Shown: piece after piece, positions 688 to 62,644 of the stretch
How the letters are laid out: each line of letters opens with the position of its first letter
Position numbering within the stretch: position 1 is the first letter of the stretch
Origin: an uncultured Gemmatimonadaceae bacterium
GTDB lineage: Bacteria; Gemmatimonadota; Gemmatimonadetes; Gemmatimonadales; Gemmatimonadaceae
Direction of reading: 5' to 3'
Length of the DNA stretch: 64,000 nucleotides
NCBI GenBank assembly: GCA_963781585.1
Contig: CAWAGQ010000016.1
Span: 21,708 to 85,707, forward strand
Notes under the pieces: generated by a model
The model's input: only the letters and a program-made list of their open reading frames with translations
The model's database searches: none
Told to the model about the DNA's origin: nothing
Made by a program: the position numbers and the translations under genes

Positions 688-1797
688 ATGACCGCCGCTT
701 CCCCCGACTGGCACGATCTTGGCGCCGACGACGACTTCCGTCGGAGCCCCGTCACCGCCGCACACATCGGCCGCCTCCGACTCGCCGTGACGTGCCGGGA
801 TGGCGAATTCGGCGTCATCTCCGGCGTGTGCAACCACAAGGGCGGCCCGTTAGGCGAGGGACGGTTGATCGGCGACTACGTGAACTGCCCGTGGCACAAC
901 TACAAGTACCATCGGACAACCGGTCTCGGCGAACCGGGCTACGAGGGGGACGCGGCGCCGGCCTACCAGGTGAAGGTCGAGAGCGGACGGTTGCTGGTGG
1001 ACCTGGCGTCGGGCACCAAACGCACCCACCTCCACCACGATCCGCATCCGCTCTCCCGCCCGATCGAGCGCGCCCCCGGCCGCGTGCGCGTGGCCGGCAT
1101 TTCGACCACCAACATGGACGTCGCCAATCCGCGGTACTCCACGTCCGACGCCCTGCTCGACGTTGCGCTCGACTACGCCGGCCGGGAACTGGACGTCGAG
1201 ACCCGCCTGGTCCGGCTCGCCACCCTCCAGTTCCGCCAGTGCGAGGGCTACTACTCCAAGAGCGCGCACGCCTGCACCTGGCCCTGCTCCATCACGGAGA
1301 TGGATCCCGCCGACCAGATGGCCGAGGTGTACGAGGCGGTCGTGCACTGGGCGGATGTCATTCTGGTCGCGACGCCCATCCGGTGGGGAAATGCGTCAGC
1401 GCTCTACTACAAGATGGTCGAGCGGATGAACTGCGTGCAGAATCAGGTCACGATCAACAATCGCGTCCTGGTGCGGAACAAGGTCGCGTCGTTCATCATC
1501 ACCGGCGGTCAGGACAACGTGCAGATGGTCGCCGGCCAGATGCTCATGTTCTTCTCGGAAATCGGCTGCCACTTTCCGCAGTTTCCGTTCATCGCGCATT
1601 CGCGGGGGTGGAGCGCCGAGGACATGGAACACAACATCGACTTCGTGATGATGAGCGATGATCTGCGCGAAGGGGCGCGGATGCTGGTCGCCCGCGCGGT
1701 CGATATGGCGCACCTGCTGCTCGAGCACGAGAAGGCGCCCCATGTGGTGGCGCGCGGCGGACGGAAGGCGCACCAGTTGACGCTGACGGGTGGGTGA
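688..1797 (+). CDS. Rieske [2Fe-2S] domain fused to flavodoxin-like FMN reductase / iron-sulfur flavoprotein domain
   Basis: CNH...CPWH Rieske ligands; C-terminal WADVILVATPIRWG flavodoxin-fold motif with Cys cluster CEGYYSKSAHACTWPC. Confidence 0.8.
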   Translation: MTAASPDWHDLGADDDFRRSPVTAAHIGRLRLAVTCRDGEFGVISGVCNHKGGPLGEGRLIGDYVNCPWHNYKYHRTTGLGEPGYEGDAAPAYQVKVESGRLLVDLASGTKRTHLHHDPHPLSRPIERAPGRVRVAGISTTNMDVANPRYSTSDALLDVALDYAGRELDVETRLVRLATLQFRQCEGYYSKSAHACTWPCSITEMDPADQMAEVYEAVVHWADVILVATPIRWGNASALYYKMVERMNCVQNQVTINNRVLVRNKVASFIITGGQDNVQMVAGQMLMFFSEIGCHFPQFPFIAHSRGWSAEDMEHNIDFVMMSDDLREGARMLVARAVDMAHLLLEHEKAPHVVARGGRKAHQLTLTGG

Positions 1798-1803
1798 GGT
1801 GCG

Positions 1804-2673
1804 CTACACGGCCGTCAGCACTCTCCGGCACGACTCCATCGCCGCCTCCACGTAGGCCGTCACGGGCGCCCGCTGCCCGGCGTCCGGCGCCAACGTCACG
1901 AGCTCGGTGAGCGTCAGGACACCGCCCACCCAGCCGGTGGTGTGCCAGTGCCCCAGTGGGAGCGGGCCCAGCGTGGCGGGGTCGGGATGCGGATACGGCC
2001 CCACGTAGAAGTACGGCTCCTGATAGGAATCGTCGCCCGGCGACAGCCCCACGCCGATGGTCCGTCCCGAACCGTCGGAGGCCGGCGGCAAGGTGACCAG
2101 CGTGGCCAGGTCGAAATGGTGTGGCCAGCACCGCGTGGGCGACGCGCCCGGGGTGCGCGACTCGATCGCCGACGCCACCAGCCAGGCGTCGTGGTAGGCG
2201 CCTGCCAGGACTTCGAACGCGGCAGCGTCGCCGCGCTGCCAGGGAGCGCCGGTGGCCACCGCATGGGCCGGTATCTCGTAGTGCTTCTTCGTCGTTAGGC
2301 GCACGGGATCGAGCCCCTGACGCTTCAGCTCACTCGACAGCCACTGGAGCGCCTGCGGCAGCGCCTTCCCGTCCAGCGGGAACGAGGACCGCACCACGTC
2401 GCCCGCCAGCGACAGGAGTGTGAGATCGTGCACCCGGAGCGCAAAACGGAGACCGACCGCATCGGCGATGACGTTGGTAGCCAGCGCCCGCCACTGCGGA
2501 AGCCACTCCATGTTGGTGTGGCTGTCATCGGCCCTGGCCGGCAGGTACGAGATCGCCGCCGACACGTTGATCTGGGCGGCGTGGTGCAGCTGCAGCCGCG
2601 CGTCCGTCAGCCGCGCGGCAGCGATCACCGTCAGCGTGCGCCAGTCGTCGCCGCGCGTACGCAATTCCGACAT
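1804..2673 (-). CDS. Conserved hypothetical protein (DUF5996-like)
   Basis: ATG 2673 preceded by GAGGAG RBS; motifs CWPHHFDLA, GLSPGD..EPYFYV, GHWH. Confidence 0.6.
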   Translation of the reverse strand: MSELRTRGDDWRTLTVIAAARLTDARLQLHHAAQINVSAAISYLPARADDSHTNMEWLPQWRALATNVIADAVGLRFALRVHDLTLLSLAGDVVRSSFPLDGKALPQALQWLSSELKRQGLDPVRLTTKKHYEIPAHAVATGAPWQRGDAAAFEVLAGAYHDAWLVASAIESRTPGASPTRCWPHHFDLATLVTLPPASDGSGRTIGVGLSPGDDSYQEPYFYVGPYPHPDPATLGPLPLGHWHTTGWVGGVLTLTELVTLAPDAGQRAPVTAYVEAAMESCRRVLTAV

Positions 2674-2919
2674 GCTCCTCCCGTGTGCGAGTGAGCCCGC
2701 GGCCGAACGAACCGTGCTCGACCCCGGCTGGTTCCCGCCAACTCCCGCCCCGGTTCGCTGCGTGGAACCTTGCTCTATCGTCCCGGGTTTCCTGCAGTGC
2801 GCGCTGGCGGAGCGTCGCCATTCCGGCTGGCGTATCGGCGCAGCGGCCACCATAGTTGCCGTCCGCTTCGCGCCCGTCCGCTCGCCTCTTCCACGCCTCC
2901 CCTTCCGACTCAGTCCGGG

Positions 2920-4230
2920 ATGAGCATTTCTGCGCCCTCGACCACGCAGGCGCTCCTCGCGTTGCTCGACGAGGCGCGCCGGCGTACGCTCGAGCTCATC
3001 ACGCCGCTCTCCGATGAGGATCTGCGCCTTCAGCACGATCCGTTGATGAGTCCGGTGCTGTGGGATCTGGGGCACATCGCGCACTTCGAGGAGCTGTGGC
3101 TCACGCAGAACCTCGACGGCGCGATCCGTTTTGCCGAGATGCCGGGGATGTACAATCCGTTCGAGCATCCGCGACGGGTGCGGGATCAGCTGGTCTACCC
3201 CACGCGCGACGAGTGCGTCGCCCTGATGGCCGGGATACGCGACCGCGTGCTCGCGAAGCTCGACCACGTGGATTTCGACTCCGATCACCCGCTGCTCCGC
3301 GATGGCTACGTGGTACGGATGGTGGCGCAGCACGAATACCAGCACGGCGAGACCATCCTGCAGACGCTCCAGCTCAAGCAGGGCGCGCCGTACCGGCCGG
3401 CGGCGCGCCGCCCCGAGCCCGAGGCGCAGCTCCACGTCCCGTTAGGCGCCATGGTCCGCTTTCCCGGCGGGCCGGTGACCATCGGCACCGACGATCGCAG
3501 CGCGGCGTATGACAACGAGCGGCCACGCCATGCGGTGGACGTGCCGCCATTCCTGATCGACGTCGCCCCGGTGCGGAACGCGGAATACCTGGCGTTCGTG
3601 AACGACCGGGGATATCGCCGCCGGGACCTGTGGACCGAGGCCGGATGGCAATGGCGTGTAGCCTCCGGCGCCGAGTCGCCGCAATACTGGTTCCGCCGCG
3701 ACGACGGGTGGCAGACCCGGGTGCTGGATCGCACCGGTCCCGTGCCCCCCGATCATCCGGTATGTCACGTCTGCTATCACGAGGCCGAGGCGTATGCCCG
3801 GTGGGCGGGCAAGCGCCTGCCCACGGAGCGGGAATGGGAGACCGCCGCCTCGTGGAGCCCCGACACCGGCATCGCACGCCGCTTCCCCTGGGGCGACGAG
3901 GACCCGGATCCGGAGCTCGCCGCGATCGACCAGCTCGGCTTCGGCACCGCCCCGGTGGGCGCGTTTCCGCGGAACGTCTCCCCGTTAGGCTGCTACGGCA
4001 TGATCGGCGACGTGTGGGAATGGACCGCCACCGACTTCCACGGTTATCCGGGCTTCGCGGCCTTCCCGTATCCGGAGTATTCGGAGGTGTTCTTCGGCAG
4101 CGAGTACAAGGTGCTGCGAGGCGGATCGTGGGCCACCCGACCCGGCGCGATCCGCAACACGTTCCGCAACTGGGACTACCCCATCCGCCGCCAGATCTTC
4201 AGCGGGTTTCGCTGCGCGCGCGATGACTAG
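2920..4230 (+). CDS. egtB: Ergothioneine biosynthesis sulfoxide synthase EgtB (DinB-like + FGE-sulfatase domains)
   Basis: QHDPLMSPVLWDLGH, HEYQH iron ligands, RLPTEREWE, GDVWEW, RNWDYPIRRQIFSGFR; adjacent egtD. Confidence 0.9.
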   Translation: MSISAPSTTQALLALLDEARRRTLELITPLSDEDLRLQHDPLMSPVLWDLGHIAHFEELWLTQNLDGAIRFAEMPGMYNPFEHPRRVRDQLVYPTRDECVALMAGIRDRVLAKLDHVDFDSDHPLLRDGYVVRMVAQHEYQHGETILQTLQLKQGAPYRPAARRPEPEAQLHVPLGAMVRFPGGPVTIGTDDRSAAYDNERPRHAVDVPPFLIDVAPVRNAEYLAFVNDRGYRRRDLWTEAGWQWRVASGAESPQYWFRRDDGWQTRVLDRTGPVPPDHPVCHVCYHEAEAYARWAGKRLPTEREWETAASWSPDTGIARRFPWGDEDPDPELAAIDQLGFGTAPVGAFPRNVSPLGCYGMIGDVWEWTATDFHGYPGFAAFPYPEYSEVFFGSEYKVLRGGSWATRPGAIRNTFRNWDYPIRRQIFSGFRCARDD

Positions 4231-5203: not shown

Positions 5204-6456
5204 TCGACGACGCCCTGCTGCGACCCTTCGTCGAGCAGCTCCGGCGTGAGGCGTTTGCCCTCGATGGCTGGCGCAGGGGCCCCGAACTGGTGGGCGCCGA
5301 GGTGGAATTCATTCCGGTGCATGACGAGTCGGGGCGAATTGCCGCGATCGACTCGCCAGACGAACCGTCCACGCTGCCGGTGCTGCGCACCCTGGCGCCG
5401 CGTTTCGGATGGAGCGAGCACCGATCGGCGAAGGCCGGGGTGCCCGAACTCCGGACACCGAATGGCGGACGTCTCACGTTCGAGCCGGGTGGCCAGCTGG
5501 AGTACGCCGCCGCGCCGCGTGCCTCGGTGAGCGCGCTCCTCGGCGATCTGCGTGACGTCGCGGCCGCACTCCGGGAATGGTGCGCGCGCTCCGGAATCAC
5601 CCTGCTGAGTTGCGGCATCGATCCCCTGAACGACATCGGCGATGTCCCGATGCAGCTCCACGCCGGGCGGTACCGTCGCATGGACCGTCATTTCGCGTCC
5701 ATCGGACCGGACGGCGCGCGCATGATGCGGCAGACCGCATCCATTCAGATTTCGCTCGACGCCGGAGCGCGGCCGCTGGAACGCTGGCGACTGCTCAACG
5801 CCCTGGCCCCATACCTCGTCGCCATGTTCGGCAACTCACCGGTCTACGCCGGGGAGTCGACCGGACATCAGAGCGAGCGCCGACGGGTGTGGGGCGCGCT
5901 CGACCCCGATCGCACCGGGTTGGCGTTCGACGAGGCAGCGCCGGTGACGGCCTACGCGCGGTTCGCGATGCGCGCCGGAGCGATCCTGCTCGGCGACGAG
6001 TCGGAGCCGAGCCGCCCGTTCGCCGATCACGTGCGACGCGCGGGAGCCGGGATCGCCGAGTGGCGCGCCCATCTCACCACGCTGTTTCCCGAAGTGCGCC
6101 CACGCGGCTACTTCGAGATCCGGTCGACCGATGCCCTCGACCCGGCGTGGTACGCGGCACCGCTCGTTCTGCTCGCCGGGCTTGCGCAGGATCCGGAGGC
6201 GGCAGGCACGGCCGCCGAGATCGCGGGCGCGCCCGATCCGGAGCTGCTGGAGCGCGCCGGGCGTTGGGGGCTGGGCGATCCGCACCTCGCCGGGGGCGCC
6301 GCCCGTCTCGCCAGGCTCGCGCTCACGGCGGGCGCGGCGTTAGGCGACGGGGTCATCCAGGTCGCCGACCTCGAGACGGCGCGCGCGTTCTTCGAACGCT
6401 ACACCTGGCGGGGGCGGTCGCCGGCCGGCGATTTGCCCGCTCACGCGGTGGTGTGA
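5200..6456 (+). CDS. egtA: Glutamate--cysteine ligase (GCS2 family), EgtA-like
   Basis: VGAEVE, TFEPGGQLE, MMRQTASIQ, HLTTLFPEVRPRGYFEIR; ATGA overlap with egtD. Confidence 0.85.
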   Translation: MIDDALLRPFVEQLRREAFALDGWRRGPELVGAEVEFIPVHDESGRIAAIDSPDEPSTLPVLRTLAPRFGWSEHRSAKAGVPELRTPNGGRLTFEPGGQLEYAAAPRASVSALLGDLRDVAAALREWCARSGITLLSCGIDPLNDIGDVPMQLHAGRYRRMDRHFASIGPDGARMMRQTASIQISLDAGARPLERWRLLNALAPYLVAMFGNSPVYAGESTGHQSERRRVWGALDPDRTGLAFDEAAPVTAYARFAMRAGAILLGDESEPSRPFADHVRRAGAGIAEWRAHLTTLFPEVRPRGYFEIRSTDALDPAWYAAPLVLLAGLAQDPEAAGTAAEIAGAPDPELLERAGRWGLGDPHLAGGAARLARLALTAGAALGDGVIQVADLETARAFFERYTWRGRSPAGDLPAHAVV

Positions 6457-7207: not shown

Positions 7208-8803
7208 ATGACCCGGTGCGCCAGGTTCCTCGCCCCGCCGCTGGCCGCCGGGCTGCTCGGATTCAGCGGTCTGCCCGTGGCGGCAGCGGGTCAGGGAGCG
7301 ATCCTCCCCGGCTCCGAGAGCCGGTCGCCGATCATCGTATCGTCCAAACCATTCGGCGAATCGTATCTGCTGGCGGAAATGTTCGCGCAACTGCTCGAGG
7401 CACGTGGGTTCACCGTGGACCGGCGACCCGGACTGGGCGCCACCGAGATCGCGTTCGGCGCGCTCCGTTCCGGCGACATCGACGTCTATCCCGAGTACAC
7501 CGGGACCGGACTGCTGGCGATTCTCGGTGAGAGCGCGGTGGGTGACGCCGAGACCGTGTATCAGCGCGTGTCCGCCGAATTCCGCCGCCGGTTCGGCGTG
7601 CGCTGGCTGCCGCCCCTGGGTTTCGAGAACACCTACGCGATCGCGGTCCGCCATGAGACCGCCGACTCGTTAGGCATCCGCACCCTGAGCGATCTGGCGC
7701 GGGTGAGCGCGCGGCTCCGGGCCGGCTTCACCCCCGACTTCATCGGCCGGCCCGACGGCCTCCCCGGACTGGAACGGACGTACGGCATCCGGCTCGCCGG
7801 CGTGCGATCGCTCCTCCCCGCGGTCAAGTATCAGGCGCTGGCGGGAGGCGAGGTCGATGTCATCGACGGCTACTCGACCGACGGCTTCCTCGCCCGGTAC
7901 GATCTGGTCGTTCTCACGGACGACCGTCACTTCTTCCCGCCGTACCAGGCGGCCGCGCTGGTCGGTCCGCGCCTGCAGGAGCGCGCCCCCGCCGCGCTCG
8001 CCGCACTCACGGAGCTCAGCGGACGGCTCGACCCCGCCCGCATGCGCGCCCTGAACGAGCGGGTCGAGATGGCCGGTGAGCCCATTCCCGCGGTTGCCCG
8101 GAGCGCCCTCGACGATCTGGGACTCACCTCGGCCCCGGCCGGAGCTTCGGGACCGGTCGCCCGCGGTGGGGCGCCGTCGCTCGTTCGCTACCTGCTGGAT
8201 CGCCGCGGCGACATTGCCGCCATGACCGGACGCCACCTGTTGCTGGTGGGCATCTCGCTGCTCGCGGCGATCGCGCTGGCGGTGCCGGCCGGACTGTTGC
8301 TCGTCCGCGTGCCCCGCGCCGCGGAAGGGGTGATCCGCGCAGCCGGGGTCATCCAGACCCTGCCGGGCATCGCCCTGCTCGCCTTCATGCTTCCCGTGCT
8401 CGGGATCGGGGTTGTGCCCGCACTGACCGCGCTCTTCCTCTACTCGGTCTATCCGATCCTGCGAAACACCTATACCGGCGTCCGGGACGCCGACCGGTCG
8501 GCCGTCGGTGCCGCCACCGCGTTAGGCATGACGCGCGGACAGGTCTTGCGCTACGTGCGCTTTCCGCTGGCCGCGCCCGTGATCATGGCCGGGATTCGGA
8601 CGGCGGCGGTGATCAATGTCGGCACCGCGACGCTGGCGGCGTTCATCGGCGCCGGCGGCCTCGGGGACCCGATCGTCGCCGGCCTCGCCCTGTCGGACAC
8701 CCGGATGATCCTGTCCGGCGCGATCCCTGCGGCCGCCCTCGCCCTCGTGATCGACGGCGTGCTGGCTCTGGGCGAGCGCGTCCTCGTCCCGGGGCACCAA
8801 TGA
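7208..8803 (+). CDS. Fused substrate-binding protein + permease, glycine betaine/ergothioneine ABC family
   Basis: DIDVYPEYTGT, GFENTY, YSTDG, FFPPY binding-protein motifs; C-terminal TM domain with PVIMAGIRTAAVINVGTATLAAFIGAGGLG. Confidence 0.88.
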   Translation: MTRCARFLAPPLAAGLLGFSGLPVAAAGQGAILPGSESRSPIIVSSKPFGESYLLAEMFAQLLEARGFTVDRRPGLGATEIAFGALRSGDIDVYPEYTGTGLLAILGESAVGDAETVYQRVSAEFRRRFGVRWLPPLGFENTYAIAVRHETADSLGIRTLSDLARVSARLRAGFTPDFIGRPDGLPGLERTYGIRLAGVRSLLPAVKYQALAGGEVDVIDGYSTDGFLARYDLVVLTDDRHFFPPYQAAALVGPRLQERAPAALAALTELSGRLDPARMRALNERVEMAGEPIPAVARSALDDLGLTSAPAGASGPVARGGAPSLVRYLLDRRGDIAAMTGRHLLLVGISLLAAIALAVPAGLLLVRVPRAAEGVIRAAGVIQTLPGIALLAFMLPVLGIGVVPALTALFLYSVYPILRNTYTGVRDADRSAVGAATALGMTRGQVLRYVRFPLAAPVIMAGIRTAAVINVGTATLAAFIGAGGLGDPIVAGLALSDTRMILSGAIPAAALALVIDGVLALGERVLVPGHQ

Positions 8804-8853
8804 GGAATCGCGGCGAGGCCAGGTCACCAGTCGCCCTGCCCCGGCGCCACCCC

Positions 8854-8859
8854 TAGAAT
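8854..8859 (+). promoter_or_regulatory. Probable -10 element (TAGAAT) 6 nt upstream of the aspA ATG; leaderless promoter
   Basis: TAGAAT-tctgcc-ATG, no SD sequence. Confidence 0.55.
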
Positions 8860-8865
8860 TCTGCC

Positions 8866-15881: not shown

Positions 15882-15883
15882 GA

Positions 15884-20293: not shown

Positions 20294-21424
20294 TCACTTC
20301 CACACCCGATAGATCTGCCCGGCCGCATCGTCCGAAACCAGAACCGAGCCATCCTTGTAGACCATCACGTCCACCGGCCGTCCCCACCGCACGCCGTTCT
20401 CGTCCTGCCACCCGACGATGAAGTCCTCGTATCCCACCGGTCTTCCGTTCTGCACGCGAATGCGCACGACCTTGGCGCCCGTCGGCACGTTGCGATTCCA
20501 GGACCCGTGAAACGCCACCAGGGCGTCTCCACGATACTCCGCCGGCAATCGTGTGGCCCGATCCAGGAACGTGATACCTAACGGCGCTGAATGTGCCTGC
20601 ATCTTCAGCGCCGGCGCCACCGTGCGCGCACATTTGGCGGAGTCGTTGTATTCGGGATTGGGAACCCGGTCACCGTAGCAGTAGGGCCAACCGTAGCTGG
20701 CGCCGTCCCGGAGAATGTTGATCTCCTCGGGCGGCAGATTCTGGTGGTCGGGCGGCAGGTCGTCCCGCTCGTTCTGCGCCGCCCAGATCGCCCCGGTGGT
20801 GGGGTTTACCGCCAACCCGACCGCGTTGCGCAGGCCGCTGGCGAATATCCGGCCGCCCGAGCCGTTCGCGTCGTATCGCATCACCGTCGCCCGGTCCGGC
20901 GCGCGCTCGTCGCACACGTTGCACGTGGATCCGATCGACACGTACATCGCGCTGTCGTGGCCGAAGATGACGGTACGCGACCAGTGATTCCCTCCCGCCG
21001 AGTAGGTGTTCAGCCGCTCCGGCATTCCCCTGGCCACACCACTCGCGTCGAGCTGCACGCGGAATACGCCGTCGCCAGCAGCGATGTAGAGCCACCCCCC
21101 GTGAAACGCCAACCCGTGCGGGCGGTTCATGCCGCTCACCGCCACCGTCTGTGACTCGGCGGTCCCGTCTCCATCCGCGTCCAGCAGCCTGATCACCTGC
21201 CCCTCGCGCGGCTGGCTTGCGTAAACGGCGCCGTCGGGGCCGAGAGCCATCAATCGCACGCCCGGGACCTTCGCGAACAATTCAACCTGGAATCCCTCGG
21301 GCACTTTCAGCCTGCCATCGAACGCCGCCTGGGGAAGGTTCACCGGCGTCGGGCCGTAGTCCGACTGGGCCGCAGCGGCAGCCGACGTTGACAGCAGGCC
21401 AAGCAGGACGGCAAAGAAGCGCAT
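20294..21424 (-). CDS. Glucose/sorbosone dehydrogenase family (PQQ-dependent sugar dehydrogenase-like), secreted
   Basis: Signal peptide MRFFAVLL..; PHGLAF, SIGSTCNVC, GLRNAVG, YGWPYC, AHSAPLG, HGSWNR, GRPVDV. Confidence 0.85.
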   Translation of the reverse strand: MRFFAVLLGLLSTSAAAAAQSDYGPTPVNLPQAAFDGRLKVPEGFQVELFAKVPGVRLMALGPDGAVYASQPREGQVIRLLDADGDGTAESQTVAVSGMNRPHGLAFHGGWLYIAAGDGVFRVQLDASGVARGMPERLNTYSAGGNHWSRTVIFGHDSAMYVSIGSTCNVCDERAPDRATVMRYDANGSGGRIFASGLRNAVGLAVNPTTGAIWAAQNERDDLPPDHQNLPPEEINILRDGASYGWPYCYGDRVPNPEYNDSAKCARTVAPALKMQAHSAPLGITFLDRATRLPAEYRGDALVAFHGSWNRNVPTGAKVVRIRVQNGRPVGYEDFIVGWQDENGVRWGRPVDVMVYKDGSVLVSDDAAGQIYRVWK

Positions 21425-27039: not shown

Positions 27040-27415
27040 GAGGCTGCTCGTGGGGAGTGATTTGTCGCCCCGGCGCGACCGCGAAAAATACCCGAAGCAC
27101 ACACGAAAATCAATGTGTTACTGGCCTCCTAAGTCATTTACTTCCAGACTTTTATCGACTCATGGACGCCGCCGGCCCCGATCGCGGCCCGGCGCCAAAG
27201 CCGTGGCCTGACTTCGGCGTCTGTTCGGGTGCCTACCGGACCACCCTCTTCCACCCTCGCGCCACCCATTCCGCCCTCGCTCGTTAGGCCCGGATGGCGT
27301 GCAATTCCCCTCCACCCCGCGCCAGACCGCCGGCCTCGGCGCTCGCGTCGCAGCACCTGGGTCTTTCGTCAGTGCGCGGATGCGATACTTTCGGACAGCC
27401 CTTCCAGGAGATCGA

Positions 27416-30177: not shown

Positions 30178-30250
30178 GCGGTCCTCAACACCTCCGGAAT
30201 CCGCTCATCGCACGGTCGCGCGAACCACGCCGCCCCAGGGGTGGCGACCG

Positions 30251-31597: not shown

Positions 31598-31700
31598 GGG
31601 ACGGATCTCCGGCGAACGCGTTGACGAATGGACGAACGGCCTGATCAAACGCGATTATGGCGCCCGACGCCGCTGGGCGCCAGCGCCTAACGACTCCTGG

Positions 31701-41501: not shown

Positions 41502-41581
41502 CCCGCGGCCCTGCCGACAGCCCGTGGCGCAGGGCCGGGGCGGGCCGCATTGTGATTGAACAATCGTGCTTGCGGTCCCGC

Positions 41582-43696
41582 CTAACGAGTGCCGGCCGGA
41601 GCGTGCCGGAGTCGTGCCTCCACGAACAGCTGCCGACCCGTGAACGCCGGCCAGTCGGCACCGACCTGGCGGTTCAGCAGGTTCGTCATCCCCGCGACGA
41701 GGTCCACGCCGAGGGGCATGTCGCGCTCCACTCGGGCGTCGAGGCGAAGGAACCCGCCCCGCTCCCGGGAAATCGTCCCATCGGGGTCACGCGTCACCGC
41801 CGTGCGCCCGGTGTAGACCGCGTTCAGACCGCCCTGCACGCCAAGCGCCGCCGGACCCGACAGGCCGAGGCGCGCGGTGACGCCGGGCCGCCCCAGCAGC
41901 GGCGTGCCCGTTGACGCGTCCCTCGTGCGCAGGAGCTCCGAGGTGGCGTCGATACGCCAGGTGCCGGCCAGGATCCCGCCTTCCAGATCGACTCCCCGCG
42001 TGGAGCCGCGCGCGATGTTGTCGTAGGTGTAGGTGAAGCTCGCGTCAGGCGCGCCCGTCTCGATGAAGTCGCGGTAGCCGTTCCAGAAGGCCGTCGCCCG
42101 TCCGTAGAGCCGGGCCGCGGTCCACTCCGCACCGAACGAGGTCGTCAACGAGCGTTCGGGCCGGAGCGCCGGATTGCCGATCACCGAATATCCCACCGCA
42201 TCATTCACGAAATGCAGGTAGAGTTCCTTGAAATCGGGGGCGCGGAATCCGCGCCCGACCGACGCCCGCAACGCGAGCGCGCTGGCAGGGCGATACAGCG
42301 CCGCCAACCGCGGGGCCACGAACCGTCCCCAGCGATCGCTCCACGTCACCCGAACGCCTGGTGTGAGGTTCACGCCGCGCCACGAGAACGTCAGCTGCCC
42401 GAACGGTTCGGCGGTGGTCAGCCCTCGGCTGGGCGCGACAACCCGGTCGGCGTCGATCGACTCATGGCGCATGGTGTAACCCACGTCGGCCAGCACGGCA
42501 CCCACCAGCCCATTCCACACCGCTTCCCCCTGGATCAGCCGCTGGCGATCCCGCGCCCCGCTGTCGGAGACCGGCTCGCTCAACGTACTGGCGCGGGAAA
42601 GATGGTCGAACGACGACAGCGAGACGGTCGCCGACACTCTCTGGAGGCCGATCCGGCTCGCCGCGCTCACGCGGCCGTCGAGCTGCGTGTTGTCGGCAAA
42701 GTAAAAGAGCTGGCCGGCACGAAATCGCTGGTGCTCCCCGACCGCCAGCATGGCGCCCTCGAGCCAGTGCCGAGAATCCGGCTCGTAGCGCACTTTCGCC
42801 TGTCCGTTCCAGCGATGCGCGAACGTGCCGTCGTCGCCCGCCACACCGGGCGCCAGCGAGATGCGCCGAACGCCGGCGTCGAGGGTGGCGCCCACCCCAC
42901 CGGTACGCCATCCGCCGCTCGCGCTTGCCTCACGCCGGCCCTGCGACCCAAGCAGCGTCGACAGATCGGCTTCGCCGCCGGTGGCCGGCGCCTGGCGCGT
43001 AATCACGTTGATCACGCCGCCCATCGCATCGCTCCCGTACAGGGTGCTCTGCGGGCCCCGCACGATCTCCACACGGTCCACACCCGCCAGCGGCAGACGG
43101 GAGAGATCGAAGTTGCCGTTGATGCGACCCGCCATCGGCTGTCCGTCTACCAGCACCAGAATCCGGCGCGAGTCGAATCCGCGCATCTGTACCCCGGAAC
43201 CGGCCGGCACGCCGCCGTCGAGCTGCACACCGGCCCGATCGATCAGGGCCGACGCCAGATCCGTCGCCCCGCCTCGCGCCAGTTCGTCGCGCGTATACAG
43301 CTCCGTGGTCACCACCGCGTCGGCCAACTGCTGCTCGCGCCTGGCCGCCGTGACCACCACGGCGCCTAACGGCACGATCGCGGGGACGAGCCGGATGTCA
43401 AGCGGTGTGGCGGCGCCGTCCGGGAGATCGACCGTGCGCGCCTGCGGTCGATAGCCGACCAGCCGCACCACCACCCGGTTCTCCCCGGCCGGCACCCGTC
43501 CGCGCCACATCCCGGTCGAGTCGGTGATGCCACGGGCCGCATCCTCATCCACCAGCACGGTCGCACCAGTCAGCGGACGCGACGACCCGGCCTCCAGCAC
43601 GTGCACTTCCAGCAGTCCCGACGCCTGCCCTCCAGCCGTACGGGCGACGCCGGCCAGCAGGACCAGCGCGCGGAGCGACCGCAGCGCCGACCGCAT
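41582..43696 (-). CDS. TonB-dependent receptor, heme-receptor-like, with N-terminal carboxypeptidase-regulatory-like domain
   Basis: RVEIVRGPQSTLYGSDAMGGVINVIT plug motif; FRAP...H...GNPALRPE; start overlaps hmuY stop. Confidence 0.88.
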   Translation of the reverse strand: MRSALRSLRALVLLAGVARTAGGQASGLLEVHVLEAGSSRPLTGATVLVDEDAARGITDSTGMWRGRVPAGENRVVVRLVGYRPQARTVDLPDGAATPLDIRLVPAIVPLGAVVVTAARREQQLADAVVTTELYTRDELARGGATDLASALIDRAGVQLDGGVPAGSGVQMRGFDSRRILVLVDGQPMAGRINGNFDLSRLPLAGVDRVEIVRGPQSTLYGSDAMGGVINVITRQAPATGGEADLSTLLGSQGRREASASGGWRTGGVGATLDAGVRRISLAPGVAGDDGTFAHRWNGQAKVRYEPDSRHWLEGAMLAVGEHQRFRAGQLFYFADNTQLDGRVSAASRIGLQRVSATVSLSSFDHLSRASTLSEPVSDSGARDRQRLIQGEAVWNGLVGAVLADVGYTMRHESIDADRVVAPSRGLTTAEPFGQLTFSWRGVNLTPGVRVTWSDRWGRFVAPRLAALYRPASALALRASVGRGFRAPDFKELYLHFVNDAVGYSVIGNPALRPERSLTTSFGAEWTAARLYGRATAFWNGYRDFIETGAPDASFTYTYDNIARGSTRGVDLEGGILAGTWRIDATSELLRTRDASTGTPLLGRPGVTARLGLSGPAALGVQGGLNAVYTGRTAVTRDPDGTISRERGGFLRLDARVERDMPLGVDLVAGMTNLLNRQVGADWPAFTGRQLFVEARLRHAPAGTR

Positions 43697-44748
43697 CAGC
43701 GCAGGCGCGCGTACTTCATGGTGATCTGGCGCGACGCTCCGGCGGTGCCATAGTAGCTGGTGAGCTGCACCTTGAAGACTTCGCTTCCGCGCTTCACCAG
43801 GTACACGTTGAACGTGGGCCAGATCTGATTGTCGGTCCCGGTGATGTTGTACCGGTACCACGGCGACGCCGCGAACACCCCGGAATACGCGTCGGCGCGA
43901 TACGCCTGCGGTGGCGCCGTGGATGCGTACGCCGCGTCGATCTGCGCATAGGGCGTGCTGTTGTCGACCACCGCGCTCACGCTCCCCGAGCCGCTCACGC
44001 CACCGTTCACCAGAATGTCGTAGCCGGTGAATCGGAGGTCCCAGTCCGCCCCGGTCGTCACCGCGCCTGACGAGAGGTTGTACGACACGGCGCCGGCGTG
44101 AACGTCCACGGTGGCGGACTGCGTGGGACCGAATGGCGCCGCCGCCGACGGCTGAACCGCGTACTCGAAGGTGACCGAGCCGGCATCGGTGGCTGTCGCG
44201 CCGGACAGATTGGTCACGTGGAACTTGGCGAGGATGACGTCGGTGTCTCCCTTGCGCACGATCCACGCACGGCCCGGATTCGCGGCGGCGACGCCCGGCG
44301 ACCCCGTGTACCACCCGGAGATCGCCGGCAGCAGCGCGTCCGCCGCGAAGGACGCGTCGGCCGGCACCTCGCTCTCAGTCACGCCGTCGAACGCCGGGGC
44401 CTGGTTCTCGGCGGTCATGCCCGCGACCTCGCCGTCGGTCGCCGACGCGTTCTGGCAGACACAATAGGCAGTGACATCACCGGGCCCGGCCGCGCCCCCG
44501 TTCAGTCCCACCGTGGTAGCGAAGAACGACATGTCCCAGACGGTCGACGTCGTGGCATCGCTCACCGACACTTCGGTGGCCGGGTCGCCGAGCGCCACAT
44601 ACGCGGTCGGCTGCGAGGCGTCGACCACGATCGATTTCGCAGTCGGGAGCGTCGATGGACTGGTGGAGGAATCGGAGCAGGCGGCAAGGCCGAACGCGGC
44701 GGCCAGCACCAGCCTAACGACCGATGGCGTACTGCGGTTGCGATGCAT
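43696..44748 (-). CDS. HmuY-family lipoprotein, apparently two HmuY-like domains
   Basis: Lipobox LAAC; two WD(M/L)xF...NGG..GxG units; KVQLTSYY terminus; upstream of the TonB receptor. Confidence 0.75.
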   Translation of the reverse strand: MHRNRSTPSVVRLVLAAAFGLAACSDSSTSPSTLPTAKSIVVDASQPTAYVALGDPATEVSVSDATTSTVWDMSFFATTVGLNGGAAGPGDVTAYCVCQNASATDGEVAGMTAENQAPAFDGVTESEVPADASFAADALLPAISGWYTGSPGVAAANPGRAWIVRKGDTDVILAKFHVTNLSGATATDAGSVTFEYAVQPSAAAPFGPTQSATVDVHAGAVSYNLSSGAVTTGADWDLRFTGYDILVNGGVSGSGSVSAVVDNSTPYAQIDAAYASTAPPQAYRADAYSGVFAASPWYRYNITGTDNQIWPTFNVYLVKRGSEVFKVQLTSYYGTAGASRQITMKYARLR

Positions 44749-51093: not shown

Positions 51094-52044
51094 ATGCCGC
51101 ACGTCACAGCGCGCGCCCCAGGGCGCATCGACTTCGGTGGTGGCTGGACCGACGTCCCCCCGTACAGTGAGGAGCAGGGAGGGTGCGTCTGCAACGTCGC
51201 CATCGCGCGGCATTGCGTCGTTAGGCTGTCTCCGGGGCGCGCGCCCGCGCCGCTCGCGGTCGCAAGTGATGGCTCCCTGCTTCAGGCGGCTCTCCGCCGT
51301 GCCGGGTCGCCCAACCTCTCCGTCGACCTCCACACCGAATTCCCGGTCGGAGCGGGGCTTGGCGGCTCATCCGCCGCTGGCGTCTCCCTGTGCGGCGCAC
51401 TCGCCACGTGGCGCGGCGAGCCGATCGACCGGCAGATGCTGGCGGAGAAGAGCCGGCAACTGGAGGTCGAGGACCTGGGAGTCGCCGGCGGCCGCCAGGA
51501 TCACTTCGCCGCCGCATTCGGAGGCGCTCTGGCACTGTCCTTCGGCACCGAGACCCGCGTTCGCCGCATCGCTCTCACCCCCACCGTCAGGGCCGCCCTC
51601 GAGCGCCGCTGCGTGGTCGTGTACACCGGCCAGTCCCGGATCTCGGGCGATACCATCAAGGCGGTGCTGGACGCCTATCGCGCTCGTCAACGCGGGGTGA
51701 TCGAATCGCTCGCCCGCATGAAACGACTGGCCGAAGAGATGTGCCTCGCGCTGTCTGCCGGAGACCTTGATGCCCTCGGAGTTCTGGTCGCCGAGCACTG
51801 GACGCATCAGCGGTCGCTCCATCCCGCCATTCCGACCCCGCTCATCGATACGGTCCTCGCGCGCGCCTCCGAAGCCGGCGCGCTCGGCGGCAAAGCGTTA
51901 GGCGCTTCCGGGGGCGGCTGTGTGATCGTCATCACTCGGGAAGACGCGGTGCAGCGCGTCCGAACGATCGTCGAAGCGCTCGCCCAGCCCCTTCCGTTCA
52001 CCGTCGACGAGCAGGGCTTCAGAGCGACGGTCGAGGACGAATGA
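51094..52044 (+). CDS. GHMP kinase, HddA/fucokinase-like sugar kinase
   Basis: APGRIDFGGGWTDVPPY, PVGAGLGGSS, GGRQD, GGKALGASGGG. Confidence 0.85.
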   Translation: MPHVTARAPGRIDFGGGWTDVPPYSEEQGGCVCNVAIARHCVVRLSPGRAPAPLAVASDGSLLQAALRRAGSPNLSVDLHTEFPVGAGLGGSSAAGVSLCGALATWRGEPIDRQMLAEKSRQLEVEDLGVAGGRQDHFAAAFGGALALSFGTETRVRRIALTPTVRAALERRCVVVYTGQSRISGDTIKAVLDAYRARQRGVIESLARMKRLAEEMCLALSAGDLDALGVLVAEHWTHQRSLHPAIPTPLIDTVLARASEAGALGGKALGASGGGCVIVITREDAVQRVRTIVEALAQPLPFTVDEQGFRATVEDE

Positions 52045-58186: not shown

Positions 58187-58295
58187 CAGCCGCGCCGCGT
58201 TGCGCGCCGGCGGTGCGCGTTAGGTGCCGCGTGTCGCTGCGGCCGGGCGGGCGCCTCTTGCCCGGGACCGTGATCGGTCGTTCCATTACCAGTCC

Positions 58296-59555
58296 ATGAT
58301 GGCATCGTCTTCCGCCGCGGCGGGCCCCCTCCCGCCCACCGATGCCGGTCCTGCCACCGGCCTGGCGGCCACGAGCGACTCCACCGCCCCGGAACTCCGG
58401 CCGCCTAACGAGCTGCCGGCTCTCATGCTTGGCGGCGGCGGAGCACGAGGCGCCTACCAGGCTGGCGTGCTGCGCGGCATCGCCCGCCGATTCCCCGAAG
58501 CCCGGTTCCCGATCCTCACCGGAATCTCGGCCGGCGCGGTCAACACGATTCATCTCGCCGCCCACCCGGGTCCGCTCGCCCGCGCCGCCGACGACCTGGT
58601 CGGCCTCTGGCTCACGCTCTCGCCCGACCAGGTGTACGACGTGCACGTACGGCCCCTGGTGCGGAACATGATCGCCTGGGGCGGCCGTCTGGTGTCTGGC
58701 GGCATGCGCAATCACAACCCGATGCGCGGTATGATGGAGACCCAGCCGCTGCGCGAATTCCTCGGGCGCGTCATTGAACAATCGCCCGATGGTACGATCC
58801 CGGGAATCGGGCGCAACATCAATCGCGGACTGTTGCACGCCGTGGCCCTGTCGGCCACCAGCTACACCACTGGACAGTCCGTGACCTGGGTCGAAGGAAA
58901 GGACGTCATGCTCTGGCAACGCCCACAACGCCGCAGCGAGTTCGCGCGCCTTACCGTGGAACACGTCATGGCGTCGAGCGCGCTGCCAATGCTCTTCCCC
59001 GCCGTCAAGATCGGGGCGGAGTGGTACGGCGACGGCGGGGTGCGACTCACCTCACCACTGTCGCCTGCCCTGCACCTCGGCGCCACGCGAATCCTCACCG
59101 TGTCAACTCGCTACCAGCGTACCCGGGCGGAGGCTGATCGCCCCCTGACGGACGGTTATCCGCCCCCGGCACAGGTATTGAGCGTGTTATACAATGCCAT
59201 CTTCCTCGACCTGATCGACGAGGACATTCTCCGACTTCAGAAAGTGAACAGGCTGCTCGCCGACCTGCCGCCCGGGGAACGCGAGGGGATGCGGGTGGTG
59301 GACATTCTCGTCATGCGTCCGTCGCGCGATCTGGGCAAGCTGGCACGGGAGTTCGAGCCGCGATTGCCACGGTTCTTCCGCTACCTCACGCGCGGGCTGG
59401 GAACGCAGAAGACGGCGAGCCCGGATATTCTGAGCCTCGTTCTGTTCCAGGCCGACTACCTGCGGCGCCTCGTGGAGCTGGGAGAATCAGACGCGGACGC
59501 ACAGGCCGGCAGAGTGGAGGATTTCCTCGTCCGGAGGACAGGCTCGACCTCCTGA
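58296..59555 (+). CDS. Patatin-like phospholipase
   Basis: GGGARG oxyanion motif, GISAG nucleophile, ASSALP, DGG. Confidence 0.9.
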   Translation: MMASSSAAAGPLPPTDAGPATGLAATSDSTAPELRPPNELPALMLGGGGARGAYQAGVLRGIARRFPEARFPILTGISAGAVNTIHLAAHPGPLARAADDLVGLWLTLSPDQVYDVHVRPLVRNMIAWGGRLVSGGMRNHNPMRGMMETQPLREFLGRVIEQSPDGTIPGIGRNINRGLLHAVALSATSYTTGQSVTWVEGKDVMLWQRPQRRSEFARLTVEHVMASSALPMLFPAVKIGAEWYGDGGVRLTSPLSPALHLGATRILTVSTRYQRTRAEADRPLTDGYPPPAQVLSVLYNAIFLDLIDEDILRLQKVNRLLADLPPGEREGMRVVDILVMRPSRDLGKLAREFEPRLPRFFRYLTRGLGTQKTASPDILSLVLFQADYLRRLVELGESDADAQAGRVEDFLVRRTGSTS

Positions 59556-60573: not shown

Positions 60574-60711
60574 GGCCGCAGTCCGTTCGCCCCGCGTTTG
60601 TCGCGGCCGATCACGAGTCGTCCTGTCACGCCTTGATGCCCACCGGATTCAGCACGATACTGCAGTGGTGGCATGGCGCGGAAAGCGCCCGTGCCGCAGG
60701 GATCGGTCATC

Positions 60712-61443
60712 ATGTTTCGTCGCCTCATCGAGCTTCATTCGCGGTCGGCGGCGGCTAGAGCGTCGGCCCAGGGATATGCGGTAAGCCTGGTGGCGCATCT
60801 TGCCGTACTGGGGAGCGCGTTGCTGGGCGGACGGGGAACGCACGTTCAGTCGCCGCTGGACGAATCGTTTGCGCCGGTCCAGTACCTCATCCCGAAGGAG
60901 CGGATCGAGGAGTCTCGTCCTCAGCGCGAGCAGATCACCTGGATGTCGGTGGACACGAAACTTGCGCCCGGCTTCGAGCCGGCGAAGGACGCGCCGAAAG
61001 ATCCAGATCGCCTGAAGATCGTGGTCGCGAAAGGGGAGCAGGATGATGTCGAGCGCGGCGAGGCCGCACCGGCGCCCCAGCCACCCATTGCGTTAGGCGA
61101 CTCGATCATGACCGAGCTGGAAGTCGACAGCGCCGTGACACGATACGAGGACAGTGCGGCGCCCCCCTATCCGGAGGCGTTGCTTCGCAAGCACATCGAA
61201 GGGTTGGTGCTCGTGCAGTACGTGGTGGACACCCTTGGGCACGCCGACACGTCCACATTCCGGGTGCTTTCGGCTACCCACCCCGAATTCGCCAGGTCGG
61301 TGCGAACCACGCTGCCCCTGATGCGCTTCCGTCCTGCGGTCATGGCGAACCGGCACGTTCCGCAGTTGGTGCAACAGCCGTTCGTGTTCAAGATCCTCGA
61401 CACGGTCCGCGTGGCCCGCGACGCGGGGAAGCCGCCGCTGTAG
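60712..61443 (+). CDS. Energy transducer TonB family protein
   Basis: N-terminal TM SLVAH; C-terminal PYPE..IEG.VLVQYVVDTLG..FRPA..VPQLVQQPF. Confidence 0.82.
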   Translation: MFRRLIELHSRSAAARASAQGYAVSLVAHLAVLGSALLGGRGTHVQSPLDESFAPVQYLIPKERIEESRPQREQITWMSVDTKLAPGFEPAKDAPKDPDRLKIVVAKGEQDDVERGEAAPAPQPPIALGDSIMTELEVDSAVTRYEDSAAPPYPEALLRKHIEGLVLVQYVVDTLGHADTSTFRVLSATHPEFARSVRTTLPLMRFRPAVMANRHVPQLVQQPFVFKILDTVRVARDAGKPPL

Positions 61444-61486
61444 GCCACAATACCACGACTGTCGCGGGCGTCGGCGAGGACGTCCG

Positions 61487-62644
61487 TCAGCGGTTGCCCA
61501 GCGTGACGACATCCCAGTACGACGACCACTCTCCGTGCCGGAGGCGGTCCGCGAAGTCGTCGACGGTCTGCACGAGTTGCGTACTAATGTGGCCCTGCTG
61601 ATTCATCGGATGACGGTGGCCATATCCGCCCCCGAAGACACTCCGGATGATAACGGAACGACCGGTGCGCGGAAACCGGCTGACGCTCTCGGCGAACGCA
61701 TCGAAGCCACCATCGCGCCACAGGTACATCTCCACGTTCGAGACGTAGAGCGCAGCGAGGACCTCGCCTCGGGCCGCGATATCCCGACCGACCGACGGGA
61801 AGGCGACGCTGCCGCCCAGGTTGCCGACGACCGGGATGATCCGGTTCCGGGCTTCCAGGTCCTGAACGAACCGCCATCGCTCGGCCGAGGCGAGGTAGCT
61901 GGCCTGCCGGTTGTCCAGATCGTGTTCGAGGATGAGCTGACGCAGGGTGGGATAGTACGATCGCGGCGAGCGATTGGAACTCGTGAAGCGGATTTCGAGT
62001 CCCCCAGCCACGAATTCCTCGTGGAAACGGCGGATAGTCGCAGAGTCCTGCTGGGTCAGCGGAACGCCATACCGGCGGATGGTTGCGAGAATGCGGTCGA
62101 CTTCGGCCTTCGCGCCGGCTTCGCTGGGCGCGAGCTGATCCACCTCGTCCAGGATGGCTTCAATCGGATGATCGTCCCAAGCCGCCACGTCGTCCGGGAC
62201 CGGGCGTCCCAGCCAGCGACACAGGAATTCCAGGCGATTCCGTGACCGCTCGAAGAGCGCCTTGAACATCAGGTGCATGAGCAGATTGTCGCGCCGGATG
62301 TCGATCAGGAAGGCAACTGAAGGTCGGATCGCGGCGATGTAGGAGAAGTTCTGATCCGGACCGACGCCGACGTATGCGCCGCCGGTCACGCCGAGGCTTC
62401 GAAGGGTCGAGATCGCATGGAGATACGACGTCTCGTTCGAAATCAGATTGTCGGAGTCGAAGAACCCCGGGGCCTCGGACAGACGCGCGATCGTGCCCGC
62501 GAATGACGTGTCGACCGGCGCGCGTGCGGCCTGCGCCGCCCGGGTCGCGAGACCGCGCGTGAGTCCGGCGGTCGAAATCGCCAGCAGCACGAGGGCGACC
62601 GTGCTTCGTCGCACCGTGCCTAACGTCCAGCGTCTGTGCCCCAT
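61487..62644 (-). CDS. Conserved hypothetical exported protein
   Basis: GAGG RBS; signal-like N-terminus; DNLISNE, YVGVGPDQNFSYIA, DIRRDN, YVSNVE. Confidence 0.75.
   Translation of the reverse strand: MGHRRWTLGTVRRSTVALVLLAISTAGLTRGLATRAAQAARAPVDTSFAGTIARLSEAPGFFDSDNLISNETSYLHAISTLRSLGVTGGAYVGVGPDQNFSYIAAIRPSVAFLIDIRRDNLLMHLMFKALFERSRNRLEFLCRWLGRPVPDDVAAWDDHPIEAILDEVDQLAPSEAGAKAEVDRILATIRRYGVPLTQQDSATIRRFHEEFVAGGLEIRFTSSNRSPRSYYPTLRQLILEHDLDNRQASYLASAERWRFVQDLEARNRIIPVVGNLGGSVAFPSVGRDIAARGEVLAALYVSNVEMYLWRDGGFDAFAESVSRFPRTGRSVIIRSVFGGGYGHRHPMNQQGHISTQLVQTVDDFADRLRHGEWSSYWDVVTLGNR

Follow-up and report, generated by a model that had tools for sequence, protein, structure and literature searches.

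Few hyper-abundant DNA words with a known mechanism have been described, namely DNA uptake sequences (DUS), uptake signal sequences (USS), Chi, FtsK orienting polar sequences (KOPS) and the cyanobacterial highly iterated palindrome (HIP1), and each of them has opened a field. Known Chi sites, which attenuate RecBCD/AddAB in an orientation-dependent way, are co-oriented with replication, with a skew of 75%, while for KOPS the skew exceeds 85-90% and switches at ori and dif. Integrons have a short core site of their own, of the general consensus GTTRRRY/RYYYAAC; their attC sites are imperfect inverted repeats (R''-L''...L'-R') of some 60-140 nt with a hairpin fold, arranged in arrays beside the integrase gene. 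The present analysis concerns the heptamer CGTTAGG (reverse complement CCTAACG; 8-mer form CGTTAGGC) in a stretch of 64 kb (67.5% GC; contig CAWAGQ010000016.1, hereafter the window) from an uncultured Gemmatimonadaceae bacterium, which an initial annotation had put forward as a candidate lineage-specific chromosome signal. It is a maintained, frame-independent, non-polar, evenly spaced and lineage-restricted DNA word, identical to an integron R box.

The word occurs 26 times in the window, 16 times on the forward strand and 10 times on the reverse strand, at exactly the coordinates and on exactly the strands that had been annotated. The rough zero-order expectation of about 7 copies given at the time is arithmetically right for 67.5% GC. 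Dinucleotide-preserving shuffles of the window contained a mean of 2.67 copies (sd 1.69, maximum 8, with 26 or more in 0/100) and an order-3 Markov model predicted 2.04 against the 26 seen. Shuffling codons within genes, with amino acids and codon usage kept, gave 1.35 ± 1.07 copies (maximum 5 in 500 shuffles), the value for comparison being the 17 copies that lie wholly within called window genes. CGTTAGG is the most over-represented of all window 7-mers and CGTTAGGC of all 8-mers (20 copies vs 0.66 expected).

All 26 GTTAGG and all 26 CGTTAG hexamers of the window fall inside the word, as do 26 of its 35 TTAG/CTAA tetramers, which bears out the impression that few of the latter exist elsewhere; the 12 one-mismatch variants at positions 1, 2 and 7 (the 5' C being position 1) have no occurrences. 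The base that follows the word is C in 20 copies, T in five and G in one, much as its annotated extension to C or T had it. Among the other flanking bases there are preferences for G at +2 (15/26) and T at -1 (11/26), with nothing conserved further out, and the word is therefore not a repeat element. A search of the window against Rfam returned no match at gathering score.

A cultured word-bearing relative, Gemmatirosa kalamazoonensis KBS708, has two megaplasmids in PLSDB, of which plasmid 1 (NZ_CP007129.1; 1,106,233 bp, 72.7% GC) was analysed in full. The IntegronFinder 2.0 paper (PMC9024848) already lists this 1.1-Mb replicon as the carrier of one of the two largest "plasmid" integrons. In its k-mer tables, about 88 same-strand repeats, spaced 0.32-1.3 kb apart and with ends of the form ...GCAAC-GATTC-GTTAG, stand out between 810 and 856 kb, where a sedentary integron was found with 83 attC sites in a single same-strand array (NZ_CP007129.1 810,838-856,171; L094:10838 to L095:6171) and three others close by. 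By the array lies a gene for an integron integrase (TIGR02249, 423 bits vs a cut-off of 265; 856,827-857,786 on the minus strand, L095:6827-7786), the product of which shares 52-57% identity with IntI1, IntI3 and environmental IntI; the gene is at the far end of the array with its 3' end toward it, which is an unusual arrangement.

Alignment of 40 of the repeats yielded the attC consensus nGCCTAACG-CTGGA-GTTCAGCTGC...GTCAGCTGCAAC-GATTC-GTTAGGC, in which TAACG is invariant at one end and, in CGTTAG, the C, the G and the first T are invariant, with the second T and G conserved at 90% or more. The commonest R' box is CGTTAGGC (27/83) and the commonest R'' box is GCCTAACG (26/83). The 8-mer CGTTAGGC is thus, letter for letter, an R box of the G. 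kalamazoonensis attC, comprising the core site and the C beside it together with the inverse core, and as a bare sequence it also fits the general core-site consensus. A covariance model (R1) built from the 40 aligned sites recovered 86 attC on plasmid 1, every one of them in the integron region, between 797.8 and 881.8 kb; the rest of the replicon yielded none. The cassette bodies (36.9 kb) contain only three copies of the word vs 25 expected, and two of these are degenerate attC ends while the third abuts an attC.

Outside the integron the word is dispersed along the megaplasmid. In all, plasmid 1 holds 801 copies of CGTTAGG (416 on the plus and 385 on the minus strand), 892 of GTTAGGC and 778 of CGTTAGGC, and 916 of its 1,084 TTAG/CTAA tetramers lie inside GTTAGG; the first 50 kb of plasmid 2 hold 20 copies. 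Since the word is present at similar density on two megaplasmids, it is not confined to chromosomes, and "chromosome signal" proved too narrow a term. Cumulative GC skew on plasmid 1 peaks near 300 kb and reaches its bottom near 1,000 kb, and with replichores drawn from this weak skew, about 54% of copies are on the putative leading strand, which speaks against the KOPS-like or strongly polar Chi-like signal that the initial annotation had considered. In the window, GC skew is negative from 1 to 52 kb and positive beyond, with a cumulative minimum at about 52000 and no replication genes seen nearby; word counts are 14 on the plus and 8 on the minus strand before this switch and 2 on each after it, these being few copies.

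Copies of the word come about once every 1.5-2.5 kb. The gaps between the 691 copies on plasmid 1 that lie outside the integron are more even than expected, with a coefficient of variation (CV) of 0.836 vs 0.998 ± 0.038 in simulations, 74 gaps shorter than 300 bp vs 126.8 ± 9.5, and 168 shorter than 600 bp vs 230.9 ± 10.3; none of 2000 simulations was as low on any of these three measures. So few close pairs speak against a mechanism treating each site independently, and they favour a benefit or drive acting on stretches of at least several hundred bases. For the small sample of 26 window copies the gap CV is 1.07. Several of the longest word-free gaps on plasmid 1 are low-GC stretches. The longest of the window (8527-20576, 12 kb), which covers the fumarase and cox genes, includes its lowest-GC part (0.626 at 12-16 kb); a gap of this length has a probability of about 0.2 by a Poisson estimate and is not significant alone.

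Local clusters of the word also occur on plasmid 1, with seven copies at 12-27-bp steps (five of the six being 12 bp) at 1,005,342-1,005,429 (L098), three copies spaced by 15 bp at 735,994-736,024 (L092), and isolated 12-bp pairs elsewhere. Identical matches at an offset of 53,060 bp link about 9-35 kb with 62-88 kb (L078-L079), which fits the 53-kb tandem repeat of the genome announcement, so that plasmid 1 counts are slightly inflated.

The distribution of the word was followed in 77 loci obtained by a GyrA-based genome scan with the window GyrA, with about 20 kb of sequence per relative. The nearest GyrA relatives of the window are Gemmatimonadaceae (top identity 84%), and 12 loci from this family (L001-L009, L011, L018 and L019) bear the word at 1.7-16 copies per 10 kb, L018 having 37 copies in 22.5 kb. 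Among the ten longest sequences, comprising the window and the nine word-bearing loci that exceed 9 kb, seven have the word or its 8-mer in first place among over-represented oligomers (the window, L004-L008 and L018); it also ranks high in L019 but not in L011. The 14 other Gemmatimonadota loci (13 in the Gemmatimonadaceae clade and the outlier L028) have one copy in 220,626 bp, and the 51 outgroup loci 0-4 copies each. On the GyrA tree the word-bearing taxa form two clades with word-less taxa between them, and the sister of L018 is the word-less L010 (37 vs 0 copies per 22 kb). At least three changes of state are required on this tree, and a topology that makes the word-bearing taxa monophyletic is rejected (delta lnL 168, approximately unbiased test p-AU 1e-5), for one gene and for a group named after the tree had been seen. 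The word is lineage-specific, as had been suggested, but its occurrence inside this single family is patchy.

Among the word-less Gemmatimonadaceae loci, a k-mer scan turned up no substitute for the word ("dialect"). GGTCCAGG was considered as a dialect of L010 and rejected, being a local tandem repeat; the top k-mers of this locus come from about eight tandem units with GGGGTCCAGGG at L010:5146-5773, which is no dispersed word. In the sister word-less loci L012 and L016 the highest-ranked 8-mer is AGGCCGAG (9 and 10 copies vs about 1 expected); its copies are dispersed, partly orthologous and composed of common codons, so that it may simply be an effect of coding. Within L018, 3.5 tandem units of 26 bp lie just 3' of gyrA (12550-12680), each of them a word-bearing GACGCC-TAAC-GGCGTC hairpin and the first probably providing the gyrA TAA stop, and a second 3'-spacer mini-array follows a TGA stop at 6890-6965, with four word copies spaced 18-27 bp apart. 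A protein search of plasmids with the TonB receptor reached no Gemmatimonadota records.

Once present, the word is kept far longer than its neighbouring sequence. Word 7-mers aligned between L004-L007, four syntenic loci with a nucleotide identity of 77-79%, are identical in the partner in 88 of 120 cases (73%; ordered pairs, hence non-independent), compared with 21.6% of the 213,690 other 7-mers and 22.7% of those with three A/T. The copy at 37468 of the window, in the lipoamide dehydrogenase gene, is also found in L004-L007; the sequence of word-less kin at this place is CCGAACG or CCGAATG, which keeps Pro-Asn and uses the CCG codon. At one gyrA site the word is present in seven relatives and the window has CGTCAGG. 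The sharing of sites is mixed, some being common to both clades and many private, and the orthologous substitutions that make the word include G-to-T and C-to-T/A. Word copies arise as solitary 8-mers, by neutral or synonymous substitutions in genes, stops and spacers. Orthologous positions in word-less taxa mostly differ from the word by 2-3 mismatches (206 gap-free 7-mers of 222 comparisons), a pattern that does not tell decay from never having been present.

The 26 copies of the window are as follows, with their strand and setting.
848..854, plus strand: sense, Rieske/FMN-reductase gene, CCG-TTA-GGC (P-L-G)
2293..2299, plus strand: antisense to open reading frame (ORF) 1804-3435 on the minus strand (no Pfam match), CGC-CTA-ACG (R-L-T)
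3440..3446, plus strand: overlaps the 3' end of unverified ORF 3442-3780 on the minus strand, GCC-TAA stop
3983..3989, plus strand: no called gene around
6338..6344, plus strand: sense, GCS2 (EgtA-like) gene, GCG-TTA-GGC (A-L-G)
7668..7674, plus strand: sense, OpuAC/permease gene, TCG-TTA-GGC (S-L-G)
8520..8526, plus strand: sense, OpuAC/permease gene, GCG-TTA-GGC (A-L-G)
20577..20583, minus strand: sense, GSDH-type dehydrogenase gene (minus strand), CCG-TTA-GGT (P-L-G)
27282..27288, plus strand: intergenic, between gyrA (minus strand) and an aminotransferase gene (plus strand)
30172..30178, plus strand: CGT-TAG stop of an aldehyde dehydrogenase gene
31686..31692, minus strand: intergenic, between class-III aminotransferase and mechanosensitive (MS)-channel genes
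33470..33476, minus strand: sense, zinc alcohol dehydrogenase (Zn-ADH) gene (minus strand), TCG-TTA-GGT (S-L-G); word in 0/12 aligned relatives
35607..35613, plus strand: sense, E2 acyltransferase gene, CTC-GTT-AGG (L-V-R); common to L005 only
37468..37474, minus strand: antisense, lipoamide dehydrogenase gene, CCT-AAC-G (P-N)
38358..38364, plus strand: sense, HAD hydrolase gene 37862-38782, GCG-TTA-GGT (A-L-G)
38678..38684, minus strand: antisense, HAD hydrolase gene 37862-38782, CCT-AAC-G (P-N)
39884..39890, plus strand: sense, class-V aminotransferase gene, ACG-TTA-GGC (T-L-G)
41581..41587, minus strand: CGT-TAG stop of a TonB-dependent receptor gene
43365..43371, minus strand: sense, TonB-dependent receptor gene, CCG-TTA-GGC (P-L-G)
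44713..44719, minus strand: CGT-TAG stop of ORF 44714-45451 (minus strand)
51219..51225, plus strand: sense, GHMP kinase gene, GTC-GTT-AGG (V-V-R)
51896..51902, plus strand: sense, GHMP kinase gene, GCG-TTA-GGC (A-L-G)
58218..58224, plus strand: abuts the predicted GTG start of a patatin gene on its upstream side
58404..58410, minus strand: antisense, patatin gene, CCT-AAC-G (P-N)
61091..61097, plus strand: sense, TonB_C gene, GCG-TTA-GGC (A-L-G)
62619..62625, minus strand: sense, DUF7790 gene (minus strand), ACG-TTA-GGC (T-L-G)

With a gene list curated from Pfam matches, sense copies are read as xCG-TTA-GGy (X-Leu-Gly) in 12 cases and as GTT-AGG in two, antisense copies as CCT-AAC-G (Pro-Asn) in three and as CTA-ACG in one. 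The remainder comprises three CGT-TAG stops (those at 30172, 41581 and 44713 that had been annotated), one GCC-TAA stop of an unverified ORF, and four intergenic copies. The use of different reading frames, of stop codons and of spacers that had been reported is therefore borne out. Of the 18 TTA codons of the window 11 lie within the word, but only one of the 21 CTA codons does. Neither of the outcomes that the initial annotation had named as fatal to its proposal (counts no higher than a Markov or amino-acid-preserving shuffle predicts, or TTA/CTA codons equally common outside the word) was found.

The same breadth is seen at scale, with gene calls in loci and plasmids being our own crude calls based on GC at third codon positions (GC3). 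Pooling the window and the 12 word-bearing loci (139 copies in 253,559 bp), all four stop-free frame and orientation classes are used, with 33, 20, 17 and 23 copies, and a further 14 copies are at gene 3' ends (7 TAG, 7 TAA) and 31 are intergenic; the flanks prefer T at -1 (63/139) and C at +1 (111/139) and are unconserved beyond. The 691 copies of plasmid 1 outside the integron comprise 257 xCG-TTA-GGC, 154 CCT-AAC-G, 40 GTT-AGG and 21 CTA-ACG in coding sequence, 61 that overlap stops and 158 intergenic ones. Their sense excess is due to the supply of X-Leu-Gly (1,028) being larger than that of Pro-Asn-X (336), and no cause linked to transcription is needed.

The pressure on codons is considerable. 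On plasmid 1 the word spells 25% of [S/P/T/A]-Leu-Gly and 46% of Pro-Asn-[VADEG] tripeptides (18.6% and 14.3% in the window) and accounts for 257 of 334 TTA codons, so that as many as 46% of accessible sites have their codons set by it. Within the genes of plasmid 1, word density is flat at about 0.5 per kb except for a spike at stop codons: counted separately, 72 copies extend beyond the end of a stop codon in the 701 genes called outside the integron region, about 20-fold the internal density, probably because TAG/TAA already supply the rare letters of the word and are free of protein constraint. Copies per gene are weakly under-dispersed (351/221/129 seen vs 372/196/134 expected). Taken with the codon-shuffle null, the use of all stop-free frames in two orientations supports the proposed signal at the level of DNA, independent of the encoded proteins and opposed to codon bias, and so do its synonymous creation at orthologous sites and a conservation of 73% vs 22%.

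Several further features of the window and of plasmid 1 may be recorded here. In the window, an EgtD-like histidine methyltransferase gene adjoins that of the GCS2 ligase at 4223-6456 (an ergothioneine-type pair), and the HAD hydrolase, class-V aminotransferase and PGDH genes at 37862-41501 form a serine-pathway-like cluster. A 96-nt tRNA-Lys predicted by ARAGORN at 12825-12920 (minus strand), within the cox1 coding region, is probably a false positive, and the DUF7790 gene contains a tandem repeat at 62768-62848 (30-bp unit, 2.7 copies, 94% matches). On plasmid 1, two overlapping ORFs at L094:4521-6751 (minus strand) correspond to N- and C-terminal parts of FtsH, possibly through a frameshift or as an artefact of ORF picking.

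What the word is for may be approached from its identity with the R box. We tentatively propose, at somewhat less than an even chance, that it is the recognition site of an integron-integrase-type protein and is kept abundant by a kb-scale drive in a subset of Gemmatimonadaceae. A causal tie of the word to integron-type recombinases is, on balance, probable, because we estimate at well below 1% the chance that an arbitrary word of this kind would fit the R box with the flanking C also in register, and because the array surfaced in the k-mer analysis only through the shared word and not through a search with many motifs. According to this proposal, the duplex word would be read by IntI or a close relative, i.e., a tyrosine recombinase of the integron-integrase type, and the copies read would be single half-sites, themselves neither attC nor attI. 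Copy number would be upheld by an advantage on kb-sized DNA stretches, which could lie in a bias of transfer or mobilisation or else in selection for having one site per gene-length, and which would resemble DUS/USS-type molecular drive and not site-by-site mutation or repair bias. The reader may have been gained and lost, resulting in the patchy distribution of the word, and the three or more state changes on the GyrA tree and the rejected monophyly fit such a history.

A farther-reaching version holds that the integrase core site has colonised the whole genome, making the entire genome a substrate for integrase capture, mobilisation and cassette birth. Nearly every gene-length stretch, housekeeping genes included, would then carry an IntI box, and the boxes would have spread since the stretches carrying them were transmitted better. 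We consider this version unlikely.

A number of observations weigh against an integrase as the reader of the word. The R1 model found no credible attC in the window and the 26 Gemmatimonadota loci (474,185 bp); a single weak match, in L008, was without R boxes and was rejected as attC. No intI was seen in the window or in these 26 loci (about 20 kb per genome), and a Pfam scan of 56 window ORFs found no tyrosine recombinase. Outside the array of plasmid 1, R''-then-R' pairs at attC-like distance number 7 vs 2-10 in the other orientation classes and are not enriched, inverted word pairs within 60 bp number only two, and L box and partner box are lacking; among the window coordinates there is no R''-then-R' pair within 150 nt. 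The dispersed copies are not attC sites. They are also narrower than R boxes, CGTTAG being followed by G in 727 cases outside the main array and by A, C or T in 25, whereas GAC and GCC variants make up 24 of the 83 R' boxes in it.

An integron alone is not sufficient to produce a dispersed word, as the Aquabacterium olei plasmid pTB101, with an IntI 54.6% identical, has no CGTTAGG and one GTTAGGC in 50 kb off its integron. The region of pTB101 that holds the integron (10,001-60,000, L101) has 10 GTTAGGC, six of them preceded by A and not C, from which it follows that the base flanking the R box varies between hosts. Perfect core sites in essential genes, such as gyrA of the relatives, would be hazardous if recombinogenic. 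We know of no physical way for IntI to multiply the site that it recognises, and known integrase chemistry fails to explain such multiplication, because precise insertion followed by excision restores the target. For the genomic sites at which IntI is known to integrate (attG), GWT is all that is required, according to a preprint (10.1101/2022.09.11.507474). Chromosomal integrons have been shown to recruit cassettes from transformed single-stranded DNA (PMC12614218), and integrase action and DNA uptake can to that extent be coupled, which makes a combined reading conceivable.

The main rival to an integrase reader is a DUS/USS-like tag of self DNA, as the strength and evenness of the word and its absence from cassettes match the behaviour of uptake sequences. 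An uptake or transfer receptor unrelated to integrons would prefer fragments carrying CGTTAGGC, and biased uptake with homologous replacement would drive the word into every tolerant position, the match to the R box being coincidental. The word has the hallmarks expected: a density of 0.4-1.6 per kb, two orientations without replication polarity, use of all tolerated frames, weak flank preferences, even spacing with few close pairs in G. kalamazoonensis, lineage restriction, strong conservation, and absence from strain-variable DNA (the 3 vs 25 copies in cassettes and the low-GC gaps). The rival nevertheless has to accept a fit to the R box for which we put chance well below 1%, inverted terminator pairs are absent from plasmid 1, the sister pair with 37 vs 0 copies shows no replacement dialect, and the literature search retrieved no report of natural transformation in Gemmatimonas. 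We regard this explanation as unlikely, though a serious minority possibility.

The regular spacing, the lack of polarity, the conservation and the presence on both chromosome-like and megaplasmid replicons would suit an architectural site, bound at regular intervals by a nucleoid-associated or chromosome-organising protein unrelated to IntI. Selection at any one site would be very weak compared with the pressure from codons and GC, yet the accessible sites are filled to as much as 46%, and identity with the R box and absence from cassettes would be left unexplained. We know of no nucleoid protein with such 8-bp specificity, and consider this account improbable.

Equally improbable is a Chi-like function, by which the word would regulate a helicase-nuclease of the RecBCD/AddAB type and flag self DNA for repair over degradation. 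A short asymmetric, top-ranked oligomer that is maintained, frequent, evenly spread and lineage-specific is what such a function would call for, but only about 54% of copies are on the leading strand, orientation is mixed over short distances in the window, the word opposes codon usage rather than riding on it, and its identity with the R box is again left without explanation.

A process driven by methylation and repair, of the HIP1 or very short patch (VSP) kind, in which a 5-methylcytosine (5mC) methyltransferase and a mismatch endonuclease convert near-cognates site by site, is in our view improbable too. It would fit the patchy, mobile-gene-like distribution and the sharp bounds of the word, the neighbours of which are not enriched. 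The single-molecule real-time (SMRT) methylome of KBS708 has three N6-methyladenine (m6A) motifs, RGATCY, ATGCAC and CCAGN7TCA, and the word is not among them (PMC3974934); the methylation idea of the initial annotation thus fails for m6A in this strain, while 5mC was outside the reach of that method and would have escaped it. A site-autonomous process also predicts random or clustered spacing and not a deficit of close pairs, and should have hit the integron cassettes, which are without the word. VSP-type repair of T:G to C:G raises GC and cannot make TTA, and the word-creating changes at orthologous sites include G-to-T and C-to-T/A.

That the word is no signal at all, i.e., a by-product of amino-acid or codon usage, a dispersed repeat (repetitive extragenic palindrome, REP, or miniature inverted-repeat transposable element, MITE) or a set of attC sites, has next to no probability: two frames do dominate in G. 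kalamazoonensis (257 xCG-TTA-GGC and 154 CCT-AAC-G of 691), but the codon-preserving shuffle gives 1.35 copies vs 17, flanks are unconserved beyond one or two bases per side, the covariance model detects no attC in the window, nor any on the 1.1-Mb plasmid beyond the integron region, and word-less relatives use common codons for the same residues.

As far as our searches show, this would be the first hyper-abundant signal word in Gemmatimonadota, a soil-abundant and poorly studied phylum. Literature searches outside subscription journals and supplements found no report of genome-wide enrichment of the word or of an integron core site, and searches on uptake sequences or transformation in Gemmatimonadota returned nothing relevant, matches to the bare word being mostly primers. 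The integron itself was already known; the identity between the R box of G. kalamazoonensis attC and a genome-wide word is, so far as we could find, reported here for the first time. If the link with integrons is causal, it bears on cassette birth and on the reach of integrases beyond the integron, and if it is not, the word becomes a candidate signal for DNA uptake or for recognition of self, in a phylum without known transformation. A genome-wide core site, if real, would be the first natural recombinase site to act like an uptake sequence and could open a window on the origin of gene cassettes. The question is directly testable in KBS708, which is culturable, fully sequenced and word-bearing, and in practice the word can help, as a sharp marker, to bin such genomes and to recognise foreign DNA in them.

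Set beside known systems, the word is closest in sequence to the integron core site, being the commonest R'/R'' box of G. kalamazoonensis inclusive of the flanking C that is invariant in 40 attC, and GTTAGGC also marks the integron region of pTB101. Unlike attC, the genomic copies are solitary, without L box, partner box or attC fold, number hundreds per Mb, lie in conserved genes, come from point substitutions and represent one R-box variant. With DUS/USS the word shares a non-palindromic sequence of 8-9 informative bases, a frequency of about one per 0.6-2.5 kb and its opposition to codon bias; it differs in belonging to another phylum without known competence, in forming no terminator-like inverted pairs, in being present or absent without dialects, and in coinciding with a recombinase site. 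HIP1 is likewise a hyper-abundant octamer, spread by substitutions in coding DNA, patchy and possibly tied to an enzyme, but it is palindromic and linked to a methyltransferase, whereas the word lacks such symmetry and carries no m6A in G. kalamazoonensis. Chi and KOPS are, like the word, short, asymmetric and top-ranked in their genomes, and they differ from it in their replication-oriented skew of 75% and over 85-90%, respectively, compared with about 54% here.

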